From Candidatus Aenigmatarchaeota archaeon (GTDB lineage Archaea > Aenigmatarchaeota > Aenigmatarchaeia > CG10238-14): a stretch of 64,000 nucleotides of DNA. Below are positions 3,292 through 35,921 of this stretch, in pieces (position 1 is the stretch's first letter; the number at the start of each line of letters is the position of its first letter). The stretch spans positions 1 through 64,000 of the forward strand of contig JAWBZR010000003.1 of the NCBI GenBank assembly GCA_044343545.1, written 5' to 3'. The notes below the pieces were generated by a model that worked only from the letters and a program-made list of their open reading frames with translations, ran no database searches and had not been told where the DNA came from. A program made the position numbers and the translations under genes.

Positions 3292-3378
3292 GGGCCCGTA
3301 GCTCAACTTGGATAGAGCGCTTGGCTTCGGTGAATAGAAGATACCAAGTGGTTGGGGGTTCAAATCCCTCCGGGCTCA
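3292..3378 (+). tRNA. tRNA-Arg(TCG) with 12-nt intron at 37/38 (3331-3342)
   Basis: Acceptor GGGCCCG/CGGGCTC; anticodon stem CTTGG/CCAAG; T-arm GGGGG-TTCAAAT-CCCTC; CTTC/GAAG central BHB helix. Confidence 0.93.
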
Positions 3379-5371: not shown

Positions 5372-6814
5372 ATGGCAGAAGATACTTTTACCATCTTTCT
5401 TGCGATTGTTGTTGGCATAATAGTCCTGGTTTTGGCATACAAATTTTTCATCACAATTTCTTATACTTCTTTAAGAAAAACCACTCTAAACGAATTTACA
5501 AAATTTTCTTCATCCATTGATTTTGTTTGCAGTCAAGAAGTCAAGACAACGTACCAAATAAATTTCAACCTTCCGGAGTCTGTAAGAGTTGTTTATGCTT
5601 CATATGATGAAAATATTTTACCTAAAGTGACAGAAAACATAAAAAATGGAAAAATAAGTGTAGGTGATAATGTGTGTTTGCATTTTAAAAACGAGCAAAA
5701 ACCGAGGTGTCAAAAAGTAAAGTGTAAGGTTTTCATTCCCTACATGGGTTCTTTGGAAACATGGAATGACTTGAAACTTTTTGTAAACAAAATATTAAAT
5801 AGGCCGCTAGTAAAAGAATATTCTATAAATATTTCAAAAACAAACTATGGCGTTGATTTAATATATGATAATTATGATTCTTTCAAAGTGCCGGTGTTAG
5901 TTATTGCTTACATTCCATTGAATGATGAAGGAAATGTGGATACGACAAAAACAGGTAATTGGAAAGAGAGTGATAAAGAAAAATTAAAAAACTATTTAAG
6001 TAGCGCAAGTGAAAATTTAACGGAGTTTATTAGCGAAGGTAGTAGATATAAATGGTTCATGAATTCAGATTCTACAAGAGCGGTAAATTATTACATTGCT
6101 GACGTGAAAATAAATTATAAAAGCATGCCAACAAAAGATGGCAATAGTGTTGATGTTAAAAAAATAATGGATGAAATTAATGTTTGTAATTATGTTGATG
6201 CAAGTGGTATTAAAGAATTTTGGATATGGGTGTATGATGATTTAAAACCGATAGAATTTGTAACTGTTTTAGGTAAGCAAGCTAAAGATATATGGAATAT
6301 TGATTACGATGGAGATGGAGAAAAGGATTATGGAGTTATAGGTAATTTATTGTCGCTTCCCACCTGCAAGCATTCTTATACTGTATATAATTTCATAATT
6401 GGATCGTCACCTGGAATCATGTTAAGCAACTATACTCATAGAATAGAAGCAACTTTAAGCTATTTGGATTATGGAATTTGGCTTTCATTTAATGTTAGTT
6501 GTGGTTCACCTGATTGTCCTATAAATGTTTGGCCAAATTGTGATGAAGGATGGAATAGTGAAAAAAAGGTAGAAACCAATTGCTTGAATTGGAGTCCTGC
6601 TGGCGGAGAAACAACAACTATTATAGATTGTCATAGCTGGTATGGATCTAAATGCAAAAAGGATGATGGCTTTGAATATAAGATCTGGTGGATGCAAACA
6701 TTACCAGGAAAAAATAATGGAATAAAAGTATTTGATTATTTCAAAGTAAAAAACTGGTGGAGTTTTATCGGCAATATAGATCAAGCGTCAAAACATAGAT
6801 GGTTGATAGAATGA
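5372..6814 (+). CDS. Membrane-anchored pilin-like protein with C-terminal Trp/Cys-rich extracellular domain
   Basis: N-terminal hydrophobic helix, small Cys-containing domain, then a domain of about 310 aa with EFWIW, WWMQTLPG and KNWWSFI. Confidence 0.6.
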   Translation: MAEDTFTIFLAIVVGIIVLVLAYKFFITISYTSLRKTTLNEFTKFSSSIDFVCSQEVKTTYQINFNLPESVRVVYASYDENILPKVTENIKNGKISVGDNVCLHFKNEQKPRCQKVKCKVFIPYMGSLETWNDLKLFVNKILNRPLVKEYSINISKTNYGVDLIYDNYDSFKVPVLVIAYIPLNDEGNVDTTKTGNWKESDKEKLKNYLSSASENLTEFISEGSRYKWFMNSDSTRAVNYYIADVKINYKSMPTKDGNSVDVKKIMDEINVCNYVDASGIKEFWIWVYDDLKPIEFVTVLGKQAKDIWNIDYDGDGEKDYGVIGNLLSLPTCKHSYTVYNFIIGSSPGIMLSNYTHRIEATLSYLDYGIWLSFNVSCGSPDCPINVWPNCDEGWNSEKKVETNCLNWSPAGGETTTIIDCHSWYGSKCKKDDGFEYKIWWMQTLPGKNNGIKVFDYFKVKNWWSFIGNIDQASKHRWLIE

Positions 6815-8733
6815 GTAAGGCATCTGTATCTGAAATGTTATTAACCATAGGTTTACTTGTTTGCGTCGCTATACTTCTCCTTCAGATAAAGCAGCTAGTG
6901 GCAATAAAATCAAAGTCTGCTTCTAATGAAGCTATCTACAATTTCGGAAGAGATTTGGAAATGCTTTTGGACAAGACAAAGTTTGTAAAACTTGCTGCAT
7001 TTAGTTATTCGCCTAAGATTAAGAATTACAGAATTGATGTCGAAAAAAACAAAATTATTCTTACTGACAAAGTAACCGGAAATAAGTATCAGTTTTATTT
7101 TAATGAGAAAATTCAACCAACACAATTTGAAGAAAGTGAAGATATTTGCATAGTGAAGCAAACTGTAACAATTAACAGTAAACCTAAAATAAATCTAAAT
7201 TGTCCTTTTGCTTTAAGAGGGATGAATTATTTTCCAGGTGAAGAAACTTGGGGAAGAATGTGGATCTATTGGGACGAGATTAAAGACGATGTTGCTCAAG
7301 ATCTAAAAAAAGCAAAAAGCATGGGAATAAACAGTCAAAGGATTTTTGTTGGTCAACCTACAGATGAAAATATTAGAAAACTAAAAGAATTTCTGTCTAT
7401 TTCATTCAACAACAATATACTTACTATCGTAACGCTTGATATTCCAGGATTTCCTTGCTCTTATGATGTTAGTTATATTGATGGTTGGATTGAAAATTTT
7501 AAAAATGACGAAAGAATCTTAGCATGGGATATTGGAAATGAACCAGGTTTGTCAGATTGTAACCCATCAAACGAACTTTCCTCAGAAGAAATAAACGTAA
7601 TCAATCAAGTGGCTAATTATATAAAATCTAAAGATAAAATTCATAAAATTACAGTCGGTTTATTTCAAGGTAATATAAACAAAATTTCACAAATAGTGGA
7701 CAACATAGATATAGTGCAATTTCATTTTTATGATGAACCATCCCCTGCTTCAGCAATCGATGAGGCTTTATCTCTCTCTAAAGGTAAGCCGGTAATAATA
7801 GGGGAATTTGGTTGTATGGCAACAGAATATCAATATTATCCTGGTATAGCTCCACCTGGAAGATTTTGCAACAATGAAAATGGACAAAGAAATTTTTATC
7901 AAATATATCTTAATGAAATTGTGAACAAAAAAATTTCTGGAAGTTTCTTTTGGATTTTTGAAGAATTTCAACAACCAGATAGATATGGAAATCAAAACAC
8001 GCCAACAAAAGATGATGTTTATTTTGGTTTGGTAAAATTAGATGGAAGAGTTACACCGGCAGGGGATTTAGTAAGGGAGTATTATACTCGACCAAATAAT
8101 TGCGTATTTCCTGGCGACCAAAAGATAGAAACTATCGTGAAGATTTTGCCCATTGACTGCAAAGAAATTTCTTTAGAAGAAATTATTCAAGAGCAACCGC
8201 TTCCATCGCCCACGCCTTCCCTTTCTTTGCCTGTTGACAGTGAGAGAATAACGAGCTGTTTTGGATGGAGATATAATGTAGTATATAGAAATGATTGGGA
8301 TTTTCATCAAGGTATAGATATATCTGTACCATACGGAAGTGAAGTGAAAGCAATAGCGGATGGAGAAGTCGTAAAAATATTAAACGGTGATGGATCAGTA
8401 GAGTTAGAAGGTTACGGAAACTATGTGTTGTTAAAGCATAAAATAAATGGAGTGACATATTACAGCCTATACGCACATTTAAAATGTAATGGAGTTGTCG
8501 TAAAAGTTGGTGATGTTGTTAAAAAGGGAGATGTTATAGCATATAGTGGAGGTAACGATAGTTGCAAGGGAACATCAACTGGAAATCATCTTCATTTTGA
8601 AATAAGAAAGAATGTAAATTTATTACAAAATACGTTGAATCCTTGTTTATTTTTAGAAAATTGTAATTGCGATACTACGTGTCAAGAATATAGCCAAAAA
8701 GACGATCCAACTAAATGCCCAAAGGTTTTTTAA
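6811..8733 (+). CDS. Pilin-like protein fused to a GH5-like (clan GH-A) glycoside hydrolase and an M23 metallopeptidase
   Basis: MSKA/SVSE + TM helix; RGMNY, ILAWDIGNEP, QFHFY and KPVIIGEFG (two catalytic Glu); M23 motifs HQGID, YAHL and TGNHLHFEIR; ATGA overlap with upstream stop. Confidence 0.85.
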   Translation: MSKASVSEMLLTIGLLVCVAILLLQIKQLVAIKSKSASNEAIYNFGRDLEMLLDKTKFVKLAAFSYSPKIKNYRIDVEKNKIILTDKVTGNKYQFYFNEKIQPTQFEESEDICIVKQTVTINSKPKINLNCPFALRGMNYFPGEETWGRMWIYWDEIKDDVAQDLKKAKSMGINSQRIFVGQPTDENIRKLKEFLSISFNNNILTIVTLDIPGFPCSYDVSYIDGWIENFKNDERILAWDIGNEPGLSDCNPSNELSSEEINVINQVANYIKSKDKIHKITVGLFQGNINKISQIVDNIDIVQFHFYDEPSPASAIDEALSLSKGKPVIIGEFGCMATEYQYYPGIAPPGRFCNNENGQRNFYQIYLNEIVNKKISGSFFWIFEEFQQPDRYGNQNTPTKDDVYFGLVKLDGRVTPAGDLVREYYTRPNNCVFPGDQKIETIVKILPIDCKEISLEEIIQEQPLPSPTPSLSLPVDSERITSCFGWRYNVVYRNDWDFHQGIDISVPYGSEVKAIADGEVVKILNGDGSVELEGYGNYVLLKHKINGVTYYSLYAHLKCNGVVVKVGDVVKKGDVIAYSGGNDSCKGTSTGNHLHFEIRKNVNLLQNTLNPCLFLENCNCDTTCQEYSQKDDPTKCPKVF

Positions 8734-8763: not shown

Positions 8764-10236
8764 ATGAAGGGACAAGCAAAATTTTTTATAAAAACGATCC
8801 ATCTTATTCTGATTATAATTATTGTTAACATCTTCTTGTATCAGCACATTTCCTCAGAAAAATTGTCAAAAGAAATTATGCATAAAAATGAAATGAAAAT
8901 GGCTGCTGATAACATCATAAATCAACTCACGCTTTCATCTGAATGCTTGGCATATGAAGAAAATATAATCTTTCAAGATGTTTCTCTAGAAAAAATCACT
9001 CATAGAGTTTTGGATATTAAAAAAATTGAAAATATGGAAAGGGAATTCAAGTTTTATGAGCCAAACTGCACCAAAAGGTACGGATTTGGATATTATTTGG
9101 TTATAGAAAAATTCAATTTAACAAGAAGAGAGGCCGAAAGAAGTGATGTTCCTCCTTTAAGCAACAAGGATGTTGTTATAATTATAGATGCTACGGCAAG
9201 TATGAATGAAGGTGATAAGATAAGTTATGCTAAAAGTGCCACAAAAGGTTTTATAGATTGTGCATCTTCAGATAATAGAGTGGGAATAGTTTTGCTAAAA
9301 GATTGTGGTGATGTGGAAACTTTTATTCATGAGGGAAAGGAATTGTTAGAGTTAACGGAGGAAAATAGAGCTATTTTGAAAAATTATATAGATGGGATAG
9401 GCACATATGGAAACACAGCGATAAAAGATTCTTTGAGAGAGGCTAATAGGATATTGAAAAATTCTGACAGACCTGAAAGATATAAAATGATAGTGCTATT
9501 AACGGATGGATGTGAAAGTTGTGGGGAATGCGAGTGCAAAAAAATAAGGAATGGAAATGGTCAAACCATGTGTCAGTATTACGAGGATTATTGCAACTCT
9601 TGTCCGCAAGGAAAGAATGTTTGTGATTTTGTGAAAGAAAATGTTGATAAAAACATACATCTTTTTACCGTCGGTTTATTCACAGACATCAAATGTCCTA
9701 ATGAAGAAGAAAAGGGAGGTGAGCAGTTGGAATGTGCAGCAAGGTCAAGAAATGGAAAGTATTATTTTGCTGTATCAACACAAAAGTTAGGTTTAATATT
9801 TTGCACTCTTGGTAGAGGTATCGGTGAGGCTCGCGAAGAAAAACAACTATGGGTTATTGGGAACAAATCTCATTCTCTTGATAAAAGTTTAAAAGGAAGT
9901 TTGTTTGTAAGCGTGCCTGTTTCCATAAGATATAATGAAACTTACACTCAATCTGGAAGAGTGACATTATATGTTTTTGATGGAGAACTTGAAGTTTTAT
10001 CAAACATTTTGGATGATGCGTGCGATTATGGCGAAAGTGAAGGTTTTGTTTCTTTATCTTATAAAACCTACCTAAAAAGAGAAAACAATCTTAATAATAT
10101 TTGTATGTTGAACGGAGAAAAGGAATTTTGTAAAAGTATTAGATGTAAAAAAGACGTGGAATTTCCTGTCCTTTTGCCAGGATATTATCATCTTAAAGTT
10201 TCTTCCAATGCTAACGTTGTAAAGGTGGGTGTGTGA
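8764..10236 (+). CDS. Class III signal peptide (pilin-like) protein with von Willebrand A domain
   Basis: MKG/QAKFF + hydrophobic helix; VVIIIDATASM (MIDAS-like), GNTAI and IVLLTDG motifs. Confidence 0.85.
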   Translation: MKGQAKFFIKTIHLILIIIIVNIFLYQHISSEKLSKEIMHKNEMKMAADNIINQLTLSSECLAYEENIIFQDVSLEKITHRVLDIKKIENMEREFKFYEPNCTKRYGFGYYLVIEKFNLTRREAERSDVPPLSNKDVVIIIDATASMNEGDKISYAKSATKGFIDCASSDNRVGIVLLKDCGDVETFIHEGKELLELTEENRAILKNYIDGIGTYGNTAIKDSLREANRILKNSDRPERYKMIVLLTDGCESCGECECKKIRNGNGQTMCQYYEDYCNSCPQGKNVCDFVKENVDKNIHLFTVGLFTDIKCPNEEEKGGEQLECAARSRNGKYYFAVSTQKLGLIFCTLGRGIGEAREEKQLWVIGNKSHSLDKSLKGSLFVSVPVSIRYNETYTQSGRVTLYVFDGELEVLSNILDDACDYGESEGFVSLSYKTYLKRENNLNNICMLNGEKEFCKSIRCKKDVEFPVLLPGYYHLKVSSNANVVKVGV

Positions 10237-10694
10237 AAGGTCAGACGAATGAAATCATAAACTTGGTCATTTTAGTAGTGATTGTGCTTGTTTTGTTTAT
10301 ATTATCATATTTTTTAACATCAAGACCTCAAAGATCCACTGCGCAATTGATTGAAATGCAGTCAAAATATGATGCGGCTAAAAAAGCTGTTTTAGGTTTT
10401 TATTATACAAAAGTAACTGGTGTGGAAGTTAGTTATGTTACTTTATTAGGTTATAGATTGATAAATGGAAATCCTTTTTACTTCGGGGAATATTATCCTT
10501 ATGTTGATTGTGACAAGATGGTGGAGGAATATTTCACCGAACATTTTGCCAATAATTGGGGGTTCGAGCTAAAGGATATATATTTGGGATATAAAAAACC
10601 CTCAAGCAATTATCAAACAATAGAAATTTTAATACCGGTGCCTTCACAAAATAATAGAATAGAAAGAGGATATTTGTATGTCTGGTCAAGCTAG
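10233..10694 (+). CDS. Type IV pilin-like protein (class III signal peptide)
   Basis: MKG/QTNEIINLVILVVIVLVLFILSYF; GTGA overlap with upstream stop. Confidence 0.75.
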   Translation: MKGQTNEIINLVILVVIVLVLFILSYFLTSRPQRSTAQLIEMQSKYDAAKKAVLGFYYTKVTGVEVSYVTLLGYRLINGNPFYFGEYYPYVDCDKMVEEYFTEHFANNWGFELKDIYLGYKKPSSNYQTIEILIPVPSQNNRIERGYLYVWSS

Positions 10695-11904
10695 CATCAT
10701 TATCATAGTAGGCTTGGTGGCAGCTTCTTTGATATTGTGGGTTGTCAACACATACACTCAATATTCAACCAAAACACGAGTTATTACATCCACTGAAGTT
10801 GATAAGATTTCGAGTTATATTGACATTATAAAAAGTTTTAGTAGAAATGCCTTGCAAATTTCCGCGCACAAATCTTTTATGTTTGATGCAAGTAGAGGAA
10901 GAACTTTCTATTGTAATGGCCCTTCTCCACCAAGTATAAGAGTTATATTGCATGATGTTGAAATATTAACTAATAGAACATTCAATGAATATTTAAGCAA
11001 AGTTAGTTTCGATGATCCATTACTTGAATTAAACATAACACCATCTACCTGTATAAGTTTTGACATAAATGAGCAACGTTTAAATTCGCATAATTATGAT
11101 GAAAAATTTAACGCAAGTGAATTTGGAAGTGAAATTAGTATAAAGTATGGCGATAATTTCTTGATAGAAAGTAATGAAATAAAAGATGAAAGTATTGTGA
11201 GGAATAGGTTTTGGCTGATTTACAATGGTTTTAAGAGATGGGCTGAAGAGACACATGCTTTCGATAATATTTGTAATTGCCTTCAAGACCAAAGTATATG
11301 CGGATGTGGAAACATTCCATGTAATGGTGATTGTAAAAGTTGTATGCCCCTATATTATTGCACAAAAGAAAGTATTATAAAAAGTATCGAAGAACTTGAT
11401 GCTATATTTTCAAACGAGTACATAGAATGTAAAGGTGAAATAGAAAATTGTGTTTTAAACGTTGAAGATAGTAGTTGTAGTGATACTGAAAGTTGCGGGG
11501 AATGGGTTAACGATGAATGTTTCTTCTGTGAATATGATGATGAAGAAAGTTTATGCTCAGATAGTTTATCATATGGTCTGGCAAGAGCGCAAGCAACTAC
11601 AACAACTGTGACTCAATGGAGTTGTTTAGTAAGTAAAAAAACTATAAAATACAAGGCAAAAATCAGTTTCGTTTGCATAGATAAAAAATATGCTCTTCCC
11701 GTTGAAGCATCGCCAGAGGAGCAACAATTGAAGTATAAGATTACAGCATATTTTGCTAATGAAGCTTATGGTGTTTGTCCAAGTTATGTAATTACAACAA
11801 ATCCGCCTCCAAATAATTGTGGATGTGCGGCTTCTGTTCCTGGACCTCCTGGACCTGGAGATGTTCCCCCTGGTCAACCCTTACCTCCTCCACCAAAAGG
11901 TTAA
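10678..11904 (+). CDS. Pilin-like Cys-rich protein with Pro-rich C-terminal tail
   Basis: MSG/QASIIIIVGLVAASLILW; more than 20 Cys; ends PGPPGPGDVPPGQPLPPPPKG. Confidence 0.7.
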   Translation: MSGQASIIIIVGLVAASLILWVVNTYTQYSTKTRVITSTEVDKISSYIDIIKSFSRNALQISAHKSFMFDASRGRTFYCNGPSPPSIRVILHDVEILTNRTFNEYLSKVSFDDPLLELNITPSTCISFDINEQRLNSHNYDEKFNASEFGSEISIKYGDNFLIESNEIKDESIVRNRFWLIYNGFKRWAEETHAFDNICNCLQDQSICGCGNIPCNGDCKSCMPLYYCTKESIIKSIEELDAIFSNEYIECKGEIENCVLNVEDSSCSDTESCGEWVNDECFFCEYDDEESLCSDSLSYGLARAQATTTTVTQWSCLVSKKTIKYKAKISFVCIDKKYALPVEASPEEQQLKYKITAYFANEAYGVCPSYVITTNPPPNNCGCAASVPGPPGPGDVPPGQPLPPPPKG

Positions 11905-11933: not shown

Positions 11934-14033
11934 ATGCTAGTAGGCAAAATTATAGGCAAAACCTCTCCAGAAAGCTATAGTTTTGAAGTTACAGGTATAA
12001 TTAGAAAAATGGATTTTGTAGCTACAAGAGACCCAGAAAAAAATTGGGTTTTGGGTAGAATAGATGATATAATACAGCAAGATACGCAAACTATTGCAAC
12101 AGTTTCAGTAATAGGATATGCAGACAAGGATGGAGTAAAGATGCCAAGAATGCCATTCAAGCCTAACACGTATGTTTATAAGGCAGACGACGGTTTGATA
12201 AAAAAAGTGTTAGGCTTAAAAAATTCTGGATTATATGTAGGTCTGCTAGATGGCTCGGAAAAGTTAAAAGTATATCTTGACCCTAAGTTGCTTATGACAA
12301 AACATTTAGCTATATTGGCAAAATCTGGTTTTGGAAAATCTTACCTGGCAGGTATTTTGCTTGAAGAATTCATGGAAAATGAGATTCCTGCAGTGGTTAT
12401 AGATCCTCACGGTGAATATTTAACTTTAAGAAACCCGAACAAAAAACAAGAAGAAATAAAATATATGCCTATGTTTGATGTTGAGCCGAAAGGTTATGCA
12501 AAAAATGTCGAAATATATTGTTTGGATAAAAATTTGACAGAAGGCTCGAGAAGATTGAAACTAAGAGGAAAATTGACGCATCAAGAAATTTTGGACATGC
12601 TTCCATTCAAACTATCTCCTACTCAGCTTAGCATCATTTATACAGCAGTGACGGAATCGGAAAAGCAAGAATATACTATTGATGAGCTTAAAAGGGAAGT
12701 TATGAAAAACAAATCTCCGTCAAAGTGGAGCGTGATTCCTGTATTAGATCTTATAAAATCTACTGGACTTTTTGACATTATTGGTTATGTTACGCCTCAA
12801 GACTTGGTTAAAAAAGGAAAAGTGAGCATAATCAACCTAAAGGGAATAGAGCCGGATATTCAGCAGCTGGTTGTCTACAAGCTTGCTAAGGATTTATTTC
12901 ATGCAAGAAAGATGAATAGAATACCCCCTTTTATGTTTATAATAGAGGAAGCACATAATTTTGCTCCAGAAAGAAGTTTTGGCGAAGCGGTCTCGTCTCG
13001 TATAATAAGAACAATAGCATCTGAAGGTAGAAAGTTTGGTATGGGTCTTTGTGTTATCACCCAAAGACCTGCAAGAATAGATAAAAATGTTTTATCTCAA
13101 TGTACAACGCAAATATTTTTGAGGGTAACAAATCCTAATGATTTAAAATCCATAAGTGATTCTGTGGAAGGAATGACAAAAGGTTTAGAATCGCAAATTA
13201 AAATATTGCCTGTAGGAACTGCATGCATAGTTGGTTTGATAGAGCAACCCTTACTTGTTAATGTAAGAATAAAGAGAAGCGAACATGGTGGTGCTCCTGC
13301 ATCTTTGACAGAAAAATTCAAGGAACAAGAAGAGTCTGGCGATACATTATACTTCTATCCAAAATTTTTCGAAGAGGATGTGAAAAAGATTGTTTCAAAA
13401 GACATTGAAAGGATAAAACTTGTGTATTATCCACTTTATTATCTGAAATGCAAGTTTAGAACAGACGAAGGAGATAAAGTGGACAACATCTTTGTTGACG
13501 GTTTTAGTGGAGAACTGGTTTATTTGAACAAAGGAATTTTGGAAAGAACTGAAGGGTTTAAAAAGCTACTTGATTTGGACACCAAACAGAAAGCTGTTTC
13601 AATATTTTTGACAAGTTATGGAAGCACGGATTTTAATACCATCAGTAAAAGATTGAAAATAAGAGATGAAGAGTTAATGGAAATATTAGGGACGTTAAAG
13701 AAAAAAGGCATAGTATCCATGGACGGCTTGTTGTTTAAAAGCAACATAAGGGTGAATTTTGAAGAAATTATTGAAAAACAAATATCCGAAGCGCCTCTAT
13801 CTTACAAGTATGGTGGCGAGGTTTTGGAACCAAAAATCAAGAAAGATATCATTCCGAAAGTTTTGGATATATTCAATCCTGATGCTGTGGATAAGAAAAC
13901 AGCTTTTTATCCTTTTTGGGTCCTCTCTTTAAGTGACGGGACTATCGAAGTCATAGATGCATTGACTGGAGAAAAAGAAGAATACTTGAAAAGCTTTGGA
14001 ATATTAGAAAACCTAAAATCTATGTTTGATTAA
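11934..14033 (+). CDS. HerA/FtsK-superfamily ATPase (DUF87-type) with HAS-barrel-like N-terminus and long C-terminal extension
   Basis: KHLAILAKSGFGKSY (Walker A), DPHGEY, IIEEAH (Walker B), EGRKFG and TQRP motifs. Confidence 0.9.
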   Translation: MLVGKIIGKTSPESYSFEVTGIIRKMDFVATRDPEKNWVLGRIDDIIQQDTQTIATVSVIGYADKDGVKMPRMPFKPNTYVYKADDGLIKKVLGLKNSGLYVGLLDGSEKLKVYLDPKLLMTKHLAILAKSGFGKSYLAGILLEEFMENEIPAVVIDPHGEYLTLRNPNKKQEEIKYMPMFDVEPKGYAKNVEIYCLDKNLTEGSRRLKLRGKLTHQEILDMLPFKLSPTQLSIIYTAVTESEKQEYTIDELKREVMKNKSPSKWSVIPVLDLIKSTGLFDIIGYVTPQDLVKKGKVSIINLKGIEPDIQQLVVYKLAKDLFHARKMNRIPPFMFIIEEAHNFAPERSFGEAVSSRIIRTIASEGRKFGMGLCVITQRPARIDKNVLSQCTTQIFLRVTNPNDLKSISDSVEGMTKGLESQIKILPVGTACIVGLIEQPLLVNVRIKRSEHGGAPASLTEKFKEQEESGDTLYFYPKFFEEDVKKIVSKDIERIKLVYYPLYYLKCKFRTDEGDKVDNIFVDGFSGELVYLNKGILERTEGFKKLLDLDTKQKAVSIFLTSYGSTDFNTISKRLKIRDEELMEILGTLKKKGIVSMDGLLFKSNIRVNFEEIIEKQISEAPLSYKYGGEVLEPKIKKDIIPKVLDIFNPDAVDKKTAFYPFWVLSLSDGTIEVIDALTGEKEEYLKSFGILENLKSMFD

Positions 14034-15700: not shown

Positions 15701-15819
15701 GCTGGAGTAGATCAGCGGTTAGATCGCCGCGCTCATAAGCTTTTAAGCTTAATGAGCTATGATATGATGATTAGAAAGGTGAACCGCGGAAGTCGGGAGT
15801 TCGAATCTCCCCTCCAGCA
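15701..15819 (+). tRNA. tRNA-Met(CAT), probably elongator, with 46-nt intron at 38/39 (15739-15784)
   Basis: Acceptor GCTGGAG/CTCCAGC; anticodon stem CCGCG/CGCGG with loop CTCATAA; T-arm GGGAG-TTCGAAT-CTCCC; BHB with TCAT/GTGA helix. Confidence 0.9.
15739..15784 (+). ncRNA. Putative intron-encoded box C/D guide RNA
   Basis: Perfect box C ATGATGA (15764-15770); degenerate D-type boxes ATGA (15759-15762) and GTGA; antisense element ATGAGC complementary to the anticodon loop. Confidence 0.5.
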
Positions 15820-31518: not shown

Positions 31519-32565
31519 GTGAGCCTCATAAGGCTTTTGATTGTGGGTTTTGATCCTGGCGAAAAGGCTGGGTTAGCTTTAATAGATACGTTTGGAAGAT
31601 TGATTCTCTTGACAAGTAAAAGTTCTGCAAGCCTATCTCATTTTTCTCAGATAATATTAAAATATGGTAAACCGATAATAGTGGCTACGGATAGAAAACC
31701 AACACCTAAATCAGTTGAAAAGCTGGCAAAATCCTTGGGTGCAAAAATCTACACGCCTTCGGAAACATTAACTGTAAAAGAAAAAAATGATATGGTAAAA
31801 AGATATGAAATAAACGTAAAAAATGATCATGAAAGAGATGCTGTTACCGCTGCATTAAAAGCTTACAAGCATTATGTGTCATTGTTTAAAAAAGTAAATA
31901 TATCTCTTCATTCGTTGGGATTGAATAATATATATAGCAATGTAGTCGAAAGTCTCGTGTTCGGCAAAGCAGAAAATTTGGATGAAGCAATTAATAAGGC
32001 TTTAAGTTTTAATAAGGAAGAAGTTAAAGTCGTAAAGCATTCTAGCAAAACCGAAAAGAAGGTTGATGTGGGCAGACTTGAAAAAGATTTGGAAATTTTG
32101 AGAAAGTATAATGAAAGGTTGAAAGAAGAAATAAAAAGGTTGAAAATGAAACCTAAGATAAAAGTTGTTATTCCAAAAAAAGAATTAGATGAAATGAATA
32201 AAACTTTGGAATTTATAAAGGCTTTGAGAAGACTAGAATTGCAAGGTTTCATACCAATAATAGAAGTAAATTTCGAAAATGCAGAAGATATTGATAAGAA
32301 AATAGATTTGATGGGTAGGGTTGTACATTGCGAGGAAAATAACTTGGAGTTTCTCAATAAATATCAAGTAAAAGCCTTGATAAGTTTCAAAGAAATTTCT
32401 ATAGGAAAGTTGGACTATCCTGTCATTGTTTTAGATGAAAAAGAACTGAAAGAAAAGGATGGAATAAAGTATATAGAGAAAGAAATTTTGGAAGAAAAAT
32501 TAAAAGAAGCGAGGAAAAAAGGGCTGATTGAATGGATAAAAGATTACAAAAAGAGAAGAATTTAA
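31519..32565 (+). CDS. DUF460-family protein (RNase H-like N-domain plus coiled coil)
   Basis: IVGFDPG, GKPIIVATD and NDHERDA motifs. Confidence 0.8.
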   Translation: MSLIRLLIVGFDPGEKAGLALIDTFGRLILLTSKSSASLSHFSQIILKYGKPIIVATDRKPTPKSVEKLAKSLGAKIYTPSETLTVKEKNDMVKRYEINVKNDHERDAVTAALKAYKHYVSLFKKVNISLHSLGLNNIYSNVVESLVFGKAENLDEAINKALSFNKEEVKVVKHSSKTEKKVDVGRLEKDLEILRKYNERLKEEIKRLKMKPKIKVVIPKKELDEMNKTLEFIKALRRLELQGFIPIIEVNFENAEDIDKKIDLMGRVVHCEENNLEFLNKYQVKALISFKEISIGKLDYPVIVLDEKELKEKDGIKYIEKEILEEKLKEARKKGLIEWIKDYKKRRI

Positions 32566-33050
32566 AGAACGTTTTATGGTTTTTTTTAAAGTTGAATCTT
32601 TTCTTAATACCGTTTTATCTTGTTATATATTTTGATGTAAAATATGAACCCCTACAAATTTTGTTCGCAAGTGCAATAAAAAAGTTCTTGAGTGTTTTTG
32701 GTTTTGAAATATTACAAGACAGTTTTATTCTCTATCTTGGCCCTGAGAGGTATGCTGTAGACATATCTTTCGATTGTATAGGATGGAAATCTGCTTACTC
32801 ACTCTTCGCCTTGGTAATTTCTTCGCCGGGTTTGTGGAAAGAGAAATTTGCCTTTTTATCTAAATGGTTGCCGTTAACATTTTTAATAAATTTTCTTAGA
32901 GTCATATTTGCATTGATCGTTGGTTTTGTCTTTGGGTTTAGAATAATGGCTCCCTTACATGATTACGTACTTCAACCCTTTATGATTGTGTTGGTTTTGT
33001 CTTTGTGGATGCTCTATATGAATAGGAGAAGATTTATAGAGAAGAAATGA
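32532..33050 (+). CDS. Archaeosortase/exosortase-family membrane protein
   Basis: Multi-TM; ISFDCIGWKS (catalytic Cys), INFLRV (Arg) and LHD (His). Confidence 0.75.
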   Translation: MDKRLQKEKNLKNVLWFFLKLNLFLIPFYLVIYFDVKYEPLQILFASAIKKFLSVFGFEILQDSFILYLGPERYAVDISFDCIGWKSAYSLFALVISSPGLWKEKFAFLSKWLPLTFLINFLRVIFALIVGFVFGFRIMAPLHDYVLQPFMIVLVLSLWMLYMNRRRFIEKK

Positions 33051-34757: not shown

Positions 34758-35834
34758 TTACGTAGGAATAACAGCCATATTATCAAAATCTTCCCAACGA
34801 GGTATATTGAACAAAGTATATACTCCACTTATAGGATCATTTACTATAAATGCTCTTTGTCCATATCTATAAGTCACGCCAGTAACAACCACTGCGTGTT
34901 CGCCATATATTAGCTTGAAAGTTTGACCTGTTTCTGGATCAGTTTCGGTTTCTACCGGGTTTGTGCGTCTGGATAACCAAACTATTACTGGCTTTCCTTG
35001 CATTATTGCATCTTCTAACATATCATAGTTTGCACTAACAGCTATTGAAGGAATACCATTATTGGTTAATAATTCGGCTATAGGCTCATTATATACCCCG
35101 TATCCTACAGGATTATTATATCCAGGTGGTGGGTTGCAATACGTAGATACATAACCATTTATTTCGCCTCTAAAGCCTCTGTGTGGATTGCAATGTTTGG
35201 GAATTTCTCTAACAAATTTTTCTTCCCAATAATCTGTTGATCCTTTTTTATAATAGGAAGCTATCATTGCAGCTGATGATAACTCGCAACTTAATTTATA
35301 ATTTTGGCGATCCAGGGGTACGTTTAATATTTTTTCCAAAAAAGTTGTTGTTGTTTGGCGAGTTGTTGTTGTTCTTGTGGTTGTTGTTGTTTGGCGAGTT
35401 GTTGTTGTTCTTGTGGTTGTTGTTTGGCGAGTTGTTGTTGTTCTTGTGGTTGTTGTTTGGCGAGTTGTTGTTGTTCTTGTGGTTGTTGTTGTTTGGCGAG
35501 TTGTTGTTGTTCTTGTGGTTGTTGGAGTAGAAGTAATTTGCGGACAATTAACTGTTCTGCAACAATATTCGTTTGGTTTGCATTGATATCTACCTAAACT
35601 TCCTATTCTACCTGCGACACAACAATCTGATCTACAAGAAGCATAACCAGAACCGTCAAGAAATGTATTACACGGTGGGTCTGTTGTAGCAGAACTATAA
35701 CGTATTGCTCCAAAATATTTTTTGAAAAAATCTAACACAGCATTTAAAAATTTTCCTTGAATATTATATTGAACTATAGCCGCAAATATTATTAACAAAA
35801 CCAAAATTGAAACAAAAATTAAAATTTTTTCCAT
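34758..35834 (-). CDS. Membrane-anchored C39-like cysteine peptidase on a Thr-rich stalk
   Basis: N-terminal TM, Cys-rich minidomain, TTRQTTTT repeats; Q..LSCE, EHAVVVTG and VNDP catalytic motifs. Confidence 0.8.
   Translation of the reverse strand: MEKILIFVSILVLLIIFAAIVQYNIQGKFLNAVLDFFKKYFGAIRYSSATTDPPCNTFLDGSGYASCRSDCCVAGRIGSLGRYQCKPNEYCCRTVNCPQITSTPTTTRTTTTRQTTTTTRTTTTRQTTTTRTTTTRQTTTTRTTTTRQTTTTTRTTTTRQTTTTFLEKILNVPLDRQNYKLSCELSSAAMIASYYKKGSTDYWEEKFVREIPKHCNPHRGFRGEINGYVSTYCNPPPGYNNPVGYGVYNEPIAELLTNNGIPSIAVSANYDMLEDAIMQGKPVIVWLSRRTNPVETETDPETGQTFKLIYGEHAVVVTGVTYRYGQRAFIVNDPISGVYTLFNIPRWEDFDNMAVIPT
35344..35523. repeat. Coding tandem repeat, about 5 x 33-36 bp (Thr-rich stalk)
   Basis: Unit gttgttgtt(gtt)tggcgagttgttgttgttcttgtg repeated. 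Confidence 0.9.
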
Positions 35835-35921
35835 AAACAATTAATTTTGATTTCTTAAATATAAATATTTTTTTCGGCTAAATAGCTTACACATTTAAAC
35901 TAATTTTCTAAAATTAAAGTA

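Follow-up and report, generated by a model that had tools for sequence, protein, structure and literature searches.

A modular pilin-like protein with tandem glycosidase and M23 peptidase domains in a member of Candidatus Aenigmatarchaeota

What would an archaeon do with a protein that joins a pilin-like N-terminus to a glycosidase and to a peptidase of the M23 family? The question is raised by a gene at positions 6811..8733 of a 64,000 nt stretch of DNA (hereafter the window; positions 1 to 64,000 of contig JAWBZR010000003.1, assembly GCA_044343545.1) from a Candidatus Aenigmatarchaeota archaeon. A preliminary description of this DNA had proposed a two-enzyme module for degrading bacterial walls, pseudomurein or host glycans, and with it a bacterial host or prey. 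On balance we think it probable that the product of the gene is a modular surface protein, similar to minor pilins, which would present two hydrolases to the envelope of another cell, most likely a bacterial one. This view draws on the domains themselves, on a conserved N-terminal module that carries different enzymes in different relatives, and on the row of pilin-like genes in which the gene lies.

The open reading frame (ORF) extends on the + strand from 6799 to 8733 (644 aa) and is intact. Its likely start codon is the ATG at 6811, which we have chosen because it overlaps the stop codon of the upstream gene as ATGA and because its position corresponds to the first residue of the homologues P0003 and P0004. 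From the N- to the C-terminus, and all on the + strand, the protein is composed of a pilin-like module (6811..7200, residues 5-134; hereafter the carrier or N-module) with a leader ending in Lys-Ala, a hydrophobic helix and a small β-sheet head; a (β/α)8 glycosidase domain of clan GH-A, GH5-like (7207..8094, residues 137-432); a linker (8095..8232) with the Pro-rich sequence PLPSPTPS at residues 467-474 (nt 8197-8220); an M23 zinc metallopeptidase domain (8233..8637, residues 479-613); and a Cys-rich tail with five Cys followed by the stop codon (8638..8733). The confidence of the structural model (pLDDT) falls from model residue 310 onward, i.e. in the linker, and the relative P0004 ends within the linker region, without an M23 domain. 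The Cys-rich tail is common to a lineage-specific M23 subgroup, since it is also found in P0003, P0006, P0008, P0009, P0014, P0018 and P0019. The preliminary description had the gene, the Pro linker and the approximate extent of both enzyme domains right, and the E-values of the domain profiles are far beyond chance. Among 1.84 billion representatives no other protein joins the carrier, the same glycosidase domain and M23; P0009 combines a different GH-A domain with the same M23, and P0054 a related glycosidase domain with a weak M23.

The glycosidase domain is matched by the Pfam family Cellulase/GH5 (PF00150) over residues 166-343 (E 1.5e-6; 28.4 bits against a cut-off of 23.5; profile positions 24-242 of 272) and the protein also by Glyco_hydro_2_C (E 2.4e-5). 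The motif WDIGNEP (residues 243-249, from nt 7525) contains the predicted acid/base E248 (nt 7540-7542) and IIGEFG (residues 333-338, from nt 7795) the predicted nucleophile E336 (nt 7804-7806). Seven residues, R181, N247, E248, H309, Y311, E336 and W385, are invariant in an alignment of 18 homologues of the domain and correspond to the set that is classical for clan GH-A. AlphaFold folds residues 128-468 into a (β/α)8 barrel (pLDDT 90.5) in which N247-E248 close strand 4 and E336 lies within strand 7. Foldseek returned at least 500 matches to this model at E ≤ 0.001, the top ones all from GH-A families: the best was the GH5 mannosidase 4lyq (E 3.7e-14), followed by GH2 glucuronidases, GH164, GH158 (6pal) and GH5_18, with 12-20% identity. 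By sequence, the best PDB matches were to an enzyme of GH158 (E 1.2e-4) and to a mannanase of GH5 (E 6.8e-4). Taken together, sequence and model make membership of clan GH-A firm, and the intact GH-A motifs reported earlier were borne out by both profile and structure searches. The assignment to GH5 within the clan is a different matter: the PF00150 match is weak yet above threshold and the structural neighbours are spread over GH5, GH2, GH164 and GH158.

The peptidase domain is matched by Peptidase_M23 (PF01551) over residues 502-606 (E 9e-24; 83.9 bits against a cut-off of 28.7), and in a six-frame search (88.5 bits) it was the sole M23 match in the genome. HQGID begins at residue 503 and HLH at residue 597. 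H503, D507, H560, H597 and H599 align to the solved M23 enzymes 3slu, 6muk and 5j1l, H560 being the further catalytic His, aligned to the YAHL of these enzymes; the set of zinc ligands is thus complete, as had been stated before. By their retained catalytic residues both enzymes look active. The NCBIfam models that matched are all of murein endopeptidases and all score far below their equivalog cut-offs (best MepM, 60.2 against 341), and we therefore claim the M23 family but not orthology to a named enzyme. The sequence matches of the domain include the phage proteins 9m7n_A and 9k2v_E. A recent import from bacteria was considered for the M23 domain and rejected: M23 together with its Cys tail is common to several carriers across relatives, at 54-68% identity, which would make it a resident of the lineage. 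An orthologue on the metagenome contig L092 (55% identity, same gene order) stops after the glycosidase domain and lacks M23, which points to a recent gain or loss of M23.

Since M23 is a typically bacterial family and the nearest look-alikes of the glycosidase domain in the Atlas are all bacterial (labelled Cellulase/GH5_mannosidase), one may ask whether assembly or binning has joined bacterial hydrolase DNA to an archaeal contig. We regard this as practically negligible. The contig is archaeal and belongs to a DPANN-type genome (651,488 bases in 22 contigs, 90% complete). A GatD equivalog (513.5 bits, NCBIfam) lies directly upstream of the gene row, and the window also holds an Rpb7-like gene, the small and large subunits of RFC, Rad50/Mre11-like genes, BpsA, FtsZ and a Pilin_N protein; a tRNA at 15701-15819 (+) is 119 nt long, which implies an intron. 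The GC content is even, at 0.32-0.35, across 1-16 kb, with archaeal genes on both sides of the gene in question. On L092 the same order is found, with GatD, the upstream gene of the row ('up'), the glycosidase-bearing carrier gene, a VWA gene, two pilin-like genes and a HerA-like ATPase, while L093 encodes the full three-part protein at 59% identity. Finally, contig pieces from the runs X2, X5 and X7 (two studies labelled hot springs metagenome) span 7938-8339, and thereby bridge the junction of glycosidase, linker and M23, with 0 differences; they possibly stem from the same population and so rule out a chimera of the assembly but leave room for a peculiarity of the strain. Four runs were compared, and parts of 6472-6839 are without cover, which proves nothing. 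The fusion of glycosidase and M23 is not an assembly chimera, and the contig proved neither chimeric nor bacterial, either of which would have undone the preliminary description.

What sets this protein in a wider context is its N-terminal module. When the whole protein was searched against 41 related genomes, it was mostly residues 5-135 that were matched, inside ORFs of 336-849 aa with unrelated C-termini. A profile of this carrier (A1) detects it in 45 of 370 genomes and a wider one (A2) in 74 at E ≤ 1e-5, among them 30 of the 98 high-quality genomes; the class and phylum sets searched with the two profiles are the same 370 genomes. The module is mostly present in one copy per genome, and some ORFs of ~150 aa carry no cargo. 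A word-based homologue search with residues 5-135 returned the protein itself as its sole match, and a search of genome contigs with P0001 and with the glycosidase alignment A4 found no relative. The Atlas clusters nearest to the carrier comprise archaeal proteins without a name, which are commonest in Candidatus Aenigmatarchaeota, and a papain cluster from Nanobdellota, to be taken as leads only. In many relatives (L053, L055, L052, L054 and others) a short Cys-rich insert with a knottin-like spacing of six Cys lies between carrier and cargo; the protein of the window lacks it.

Is the carrier a pilin? The protein starts with Met-Ser-Lys-Ala and continues with a hydrophobic stretch at the extreme N-terminus. 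The Lys is invariant and followed by Ala or Gly in the 8-row alignment A1, and the same holds for most rows of A2. All elements of a class III signal peptide are present, namely a short hydrophilic leader, a basic residue, Gly/Ala and ~20 hydrophobic residues (for the leader rule at positions −2, −1 and +1 see PMC3387779). The predicted structure (pLDDT 82.1) contains a 56-residue helix at 3-58 and seven strands. In a wide fold search of 48,161 chains the top two matches were type IV pilins, PilA5 of Thermus (Z 5.3, 92 residues aligned) and PilA4 (Z 4.8), values that lie under the reliability level of the tool and in this respect count against a pilin; the next pilin-type chains, near Z 4, were the PAO1 pilin, TTHA1222 and the minor pilin FimU. 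The pilin-like character of the carrier, also put forward in the preliminary description, is therefore supported but not proven: leader, helix and weak fold matches speak for it, whereas no curated pilin profile was matched. On this point the gene context decides more than the fold.

The gene at 6811 belongs to a translationally coupled row of five pilin-like genes. The first is the 'up' family gene (5372..6814, +, 480 aa), whose product has an N-terminal carrier module of ~165 aa with four invariant Cys and a C-terminal part of 305 aa. Downstream of the gene at 6811 lie a pilin-like protein with a von Willebrand A domain (8764..10236, +; VWA_2 E 2e-11), a small pilin-like protein of 153 aa, p153 (10233..10694, +), overlapping its upstream neighbour by 4 nt, and p408, a Cys-rich pilin-like protein of 408 aa with a Pro-rich end and no Pfam match (10678..11904, +). 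A HerA/DUF87-type ATPase of 699 aa (11934..14033, +; DUF87 E 5.3e-29) follows the row. The packing is tight throughout: neighbouring genes overlap by 4, 4 and 17 nt or are separated by 30 and 29 nt, the 29 nt lying between the row and the ATPase gene. The row is conserved: among 39 sources of the N-module, i.e. 38 loci of relatives plus the window, VWA was present in 32, 'up' in 30 (within the stretch fetched around the N-module gene, and directly upstream of it in most), p153 in 28 and p408 in 26. Prepilin-like starts occur in all row families, and in the window the VWA and p153 proteins start with Lys-Gly-Gln. At 14 loci the same strand also carries four or five small genes of pilin size and a PilC-like gene of ~700 aa, whose T2SSF score of 24.6 bits lies under the cut-off of 25.2. 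The window's own genome possesses, on other contigs, five T2SSE ATPases above cut-off, two A24 prepilin peptidases and a PilC-like orthologue (55% identical). Neither the row nor the conserved carrier module had figured in the preliminary description.

Some details of the row deserve mention. Certain members of the 'up' family carry cargo themselves, one of them LysM. The C-terminal 305 residues of the 'up' protein of the window (5897-6811) match no Pfam family at E ≤ 0.1 and the whole 480 aa protein has 0 PDB sequence matches at E ≤ 1. This part is conserved in L092, and relatives place LysM or a GH-A-like domain at the same position; it could represent one more enzyme or binding module that has escaped recognition. 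A predicted complex of the 'up' module and the N-module scored 0.01 (mark 0.32), which says nothing either way. The HerA-like ATPase occupies the same position in L092 and adjoins the row at no other locus, while a 426 aa homologue lies near the row on the opposite strand in the same-genus loci L058, L064 and L074. The ATPase of the window has weak NCBIfam hits, one being HerA and the other CedD, a DNA-translocating ATPase. As its place beside the row is limited to the window and L092, we have dropped it as a component of the system, its membership being uncertain. In three genomes of the same genus (G004:C11, G001:C4 and G003:C11; loci L097-L099) the VWA gene of the row is represented by a ~275 aa version which matches at its two ends only and is without the VWA domain; in these genomes the N-module gene is found apart, next to FtsZ.

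The enzymes carried by the N-module differ between relatives. We fetched the loci of 38 relatives and, with the carrier ORF of L059 set aside, scanned the other 37, assigning families at E ≤ 0.001. The cargo was SLT in seven cases, papain (C1) and reprolysin-like in three each, C25 and M14 in two each and M23 in one, with no family in 21. An HExxH motif within a Cys-rich domain is present in 12 of 22 unassigned cargos, and 7 of these 12 have met-zincin hits below threshold. Among metagenome members, P0113 has amidase_2 and P0008 M23 alone on the carrier. SLT and amidase_2 enzymes require MurNAc, a sugar which pseudomurein does not contain.

An SLT-like module also occurs in the window's own genome (G000), at the end of a second carrier on another contig (G000:C1:3531-5501; loci L021 and L094). 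This protein has a multi-pass N-terminus, a β-rich middle part and a Cys-rich linker, and its counterparts in the same-genus genomes G001 and G003 end in M23. Its similarity to the G001 protein P0015 amounts to 41% identity over 363 residues, and the terminal M23 domain of P0015 is 57% identical to that of the window. Conversely, SLT sits on the N-module in G001 and G003, and the SLT-like module of the second carrier in G000 is 38% identical to the SLT cargo on the N-module in the same-genus genome G004. Each of G000, G001 and G003 thus keeps one glycan-cutting SLT-like enzyme and one M23 enzyme, with the carriers swapped. The second carrier gene lies directly beside a pilin-like gene; a PilC-like gene (541-2634) is found ~0.9 kb away, beyond a single ORF.

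How might such a protein work? We infer leader processing, incorporation into a filament, substrate and target organism from the data above. The short leader and the hydrophobic helix would carry the protein through the membrane, and one of the two genomic prepilin peptidases could cut the leader. The pilin-like head is connected through the linker to a retaining glycosidase of clan GH-A and, in tandem with it, a zinc endopeptidase of the M23 family, the latter presumably stabilised by the disulfide-rich tail. The products of the row might form the tip of a type IV filament or its priming complex, or they might make up a short pseudopilus, and this structure would hold the enzymes against the other cell and open its envelope locally. 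The most likely target would be a sugar layer and the peptidoglycan cross-links of a bacterium. The murein-specific cargo of relatives (SLT, amidase_2, M14, M23 and LysM) favours bacterial targets for the member in the window; since most relatives carry proteases, other members of the family probably encounter envelopes made of protein.

Several observations weigh against this reading. The commonest cargo type in the family is protease and not murein hydrolase, which would point to protein envelopes such as S-layers instead of murein. With Pfam (E ≤ 0.01) no LysM, PG_binding, SH3 or similar wall-binding domain was found in the protein, while a modular peptidoglycan hydrolase has been defined by a wall-binding domain next to the catalytic one (PMC12352652). 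The glycosidase domain obtained neither a family-level assignment nor a predicted sugar from the Pfam, PDB sequence, Foldseek and Atlas comparisons. Moreover, we know of no clan GH-A enzyme that cuts the murein glycan. As for the carrier, Foldseek found no match to the N-module in the PDB at E ≤ 0.001, and Pfam searches of 37 members at E ≤ 1 gave no match to Pilin_N (PF07790) or Class_IIIsignal (PF04021), only marginal ones to DUF7266 and Flp1_like in three members each; archaeal pilins do evade profiles (PMC6393860). Lastly, in the window's own genome the row does not lie next to PilB/PilC genes but between GatD and the HerA-like ATPase.

The points concerning the carrier, together with the detachment of the row from PilB/PilC, would also fit a simpler role in which the N-module is a signal-anchor and stalk and the enzymes digest free wall debris or glycans to feed an auxotrophic cell, with neither filament nor attack. 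A small genome of 651 kb fits a dependence on external building blocks, and a broad protease and glycosidase cargo fits nutrient release. This is possible, if rather doubtful, as it leaves aside the strictly conserved position of the gene next to four or five genes whose products also begin like prepilins, the PilC-like gene adjoining at 14 loci, the existence of cargo-less versions of pilin size and the VWA adhesion protein in the same row. If, instead, an attack does take place, it might be aimed at an archaeal host, the glycosidase trimming S-layer or N-glycans, or pseudomurein, and M23 cutting a surface peptide. The dominance of proteases in the family's cargo suits this idea, as do structural neighbours of the glycosidase domain such as GH5_18 and BlMan5B, solved with GlcNAc or Man-β-1,4-GlcNAc ligands, and the β-1,3-glucanase GH158; the known hosts of cultivated DPANN archaea are themselves archaea. 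Nonetheless we consider an archaeal target improbable. M23, SLT, amidase_2, M14 and LysM together form a murein-directed set, and the SLT-like plus M23 enzymes kept by G000, G001 and G003 correspond to the usual glycan-plus-peptide pairing of murein lysins. Pseudomurein, an option in the preliminary description, was dropped altogether because of the MurNAc requirement of SLT and amidase_2.

There is also the possibility that the enzymes serve the cell's own envelope. In bacteria, specialised lytic transglycosylases assist secretion machines by opening the envelope of the producing cell, and the position of our gene in a filament gene row resembles that of such machine-associated enzymes, so that it might open the cell's own envelope for the passage of the filament. 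We hold this to be very unlikely. A search of the window's own genome, which is 90% complete, gave 0 matches to Mur ligases, archaea of this kind are not known to have murein, and the cargo (papain, C25, zincin and GH-A) is too varied for one housekeeping role. The outward-directed presentation of two hydrolases by a minor-pilin-like protein is thus the reading we retain. From the preliminary description this keeps the wall-degrading module, for which the murein-type cargo (SLT, a second M23, M14, amidase_2) and the LysM of relatives speak, and a bacterial host or prey as a likely target; with protease as the commonest cargo of the family, neither is more than likely.

The arrangement recalls the modular type IV pilins of bacteria, such as PilB with a vWA and PilC with a lectin module in Streptococcus sanguinis (Raynaud et al. 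2021, PMC8179133; Pelicic 2023, PMC10191384), with which it shares a gene placed among minor pilins, a predicted exposure at the tip and a vWA pilin in the set. The survey of such pilins lists predicted peptidase modules (S74 and M26) and is keyed on the bacterial motif IPR012902; its text does not use the word 'archaea'. In our case, by contrast, the carrier is an unannotated archaeal module and the cargo consists of two tandem degradative enzymes which are swapped between relatives. Variable domains exposed at the pilus tip by minor-pilin complexes are also a feature of the Kil Tad pilus of Myxococcus xanthus, where interchangeable minor-pilin tips take part in the contact-dependent killing of prey (PMC12075869). 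However, this is a bacterial Tad system whose variable domains are not described as hydrolases in the abstract of that paper, and killing also needs a T3SS-like complex.

On the enzymatic side, archaeal peptidoglycan hydrolases that kill bacteria have been described, namely Woldo and Danwoldo of Halogranum salarium, and the same study reports that four genomes of Nanoarchaeia contain M23 homologues, that such hydrolases are prominent in Nanoarchaeota and that domains have been shuffled (PMC12352652). Common to both cases is an archaeal M23 read as an anti-bacterial weapon. The set around Woldo, however, required a wall-binding domain (two PG_binding_1 in Woldo itself); the protein described here has none and carries a GH-A domain and a pilin-like carrier in addition, and 'pilin' occurs 0 times in the text of that paper. 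Lytic murein transglycosylases (GH23) of Woesearchaeota have been interpreted as a sign of predation on bacteria (Vigneron et al. 2022, PMC9723730). That case shares with ours a DPANN archaeon with murein-cutting genes and differs in the enzyme, GH23, and in that a pilin carrier or row is not described, 'pili' and 'pilin' occurring 0 times in the text. With regard to filaments, divergent 'dark matter' pilins have been noted in the type IV pilus islands of DPANN archaea (PMC6393860), and the terms hydrolase, modular, vWA and peptidoglycan are all absent from a 2026 survey devoted to archaeal type 4 filaments (PMC13705601). Our literature search found no description of the archaeal carrier family or of pilin-mounted archaeal hydrolases, its scope being main texts, and the supplements of PMC12352652 (S2 Table) and PMC13705601 (S9/S10 figures, tables) may list related proteins. 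What we consider new is the conserved archaeal carrier module with swapped hydrolases; archaeal peptidoglycan hydrolases and bacterial modular pilins were known before.

A further parallel exists outside cells. Phage tails bear two-enzyme murein lysins in which a glycosidase and an M23 peptidase form one polypeptide mounted on the structure that touches the target. The protein of the window differs in that its glycosidase belongs to clan GH-A and not to a lysozyme or transglycosylase fold, and in that its mount is pilin-like and not part of a virion.

A few features of the window lie outside the system proper. A scan for promoters and terminators gave 47 sigma-70 sites where 50.9 were expected and 5 terminators against 4.8, and the sigma-70 consensus does not apply to archaea. 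At 3292-3378 there is an odd tRNA with an anticodon that ARAGORN could not resolve. Surface-processing genes occur at 32532-33050 (+), encoding an exosortase/archaeosortase-like membrane protein, and at 34758-35840 (−), encoding a secreted Peptidase_C39_2-like protein. Between 58000 and 64000 the GC content is 0.20-0.25, with glycosyltransferase family 2 genes and a 788 aa Laminin_G_3 protein; this region may be a surface-glycan island of different origin.

What does the locus mean for these organisms? It bears on how ultra-small DPANN archaea breach the envelopes of the cells they depend on, and on whether any of them live on bacteria instead of archaea. The cargo of the carrier could indicate which envelope is targeted (some genomes carry murein enzymes, others proteases), and the idea of the modular pilin would be extended from bacterial adhesins to archaeal enzymes. 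Hydrolases of this kind would escape screens that require a wall-binding domain, and coming from a hot-spring organism they are candidate thermostable wall-lytic enzymes. The GH-A module may even be the first enzyme of its clan to act on a bacterial wall glycan. Going further, and only tentatively, many members of the phylum might carry a filament whose tip works as an enzymatic drill, a minor-pilin-like row with exchangeable hydrolases, each suited to the envelope that the partner cell presents; the version in the window, with GH-A and M23 on one carrier and SLT on a second, would then belong to a cross-domain attacker or parasite of bacteria.

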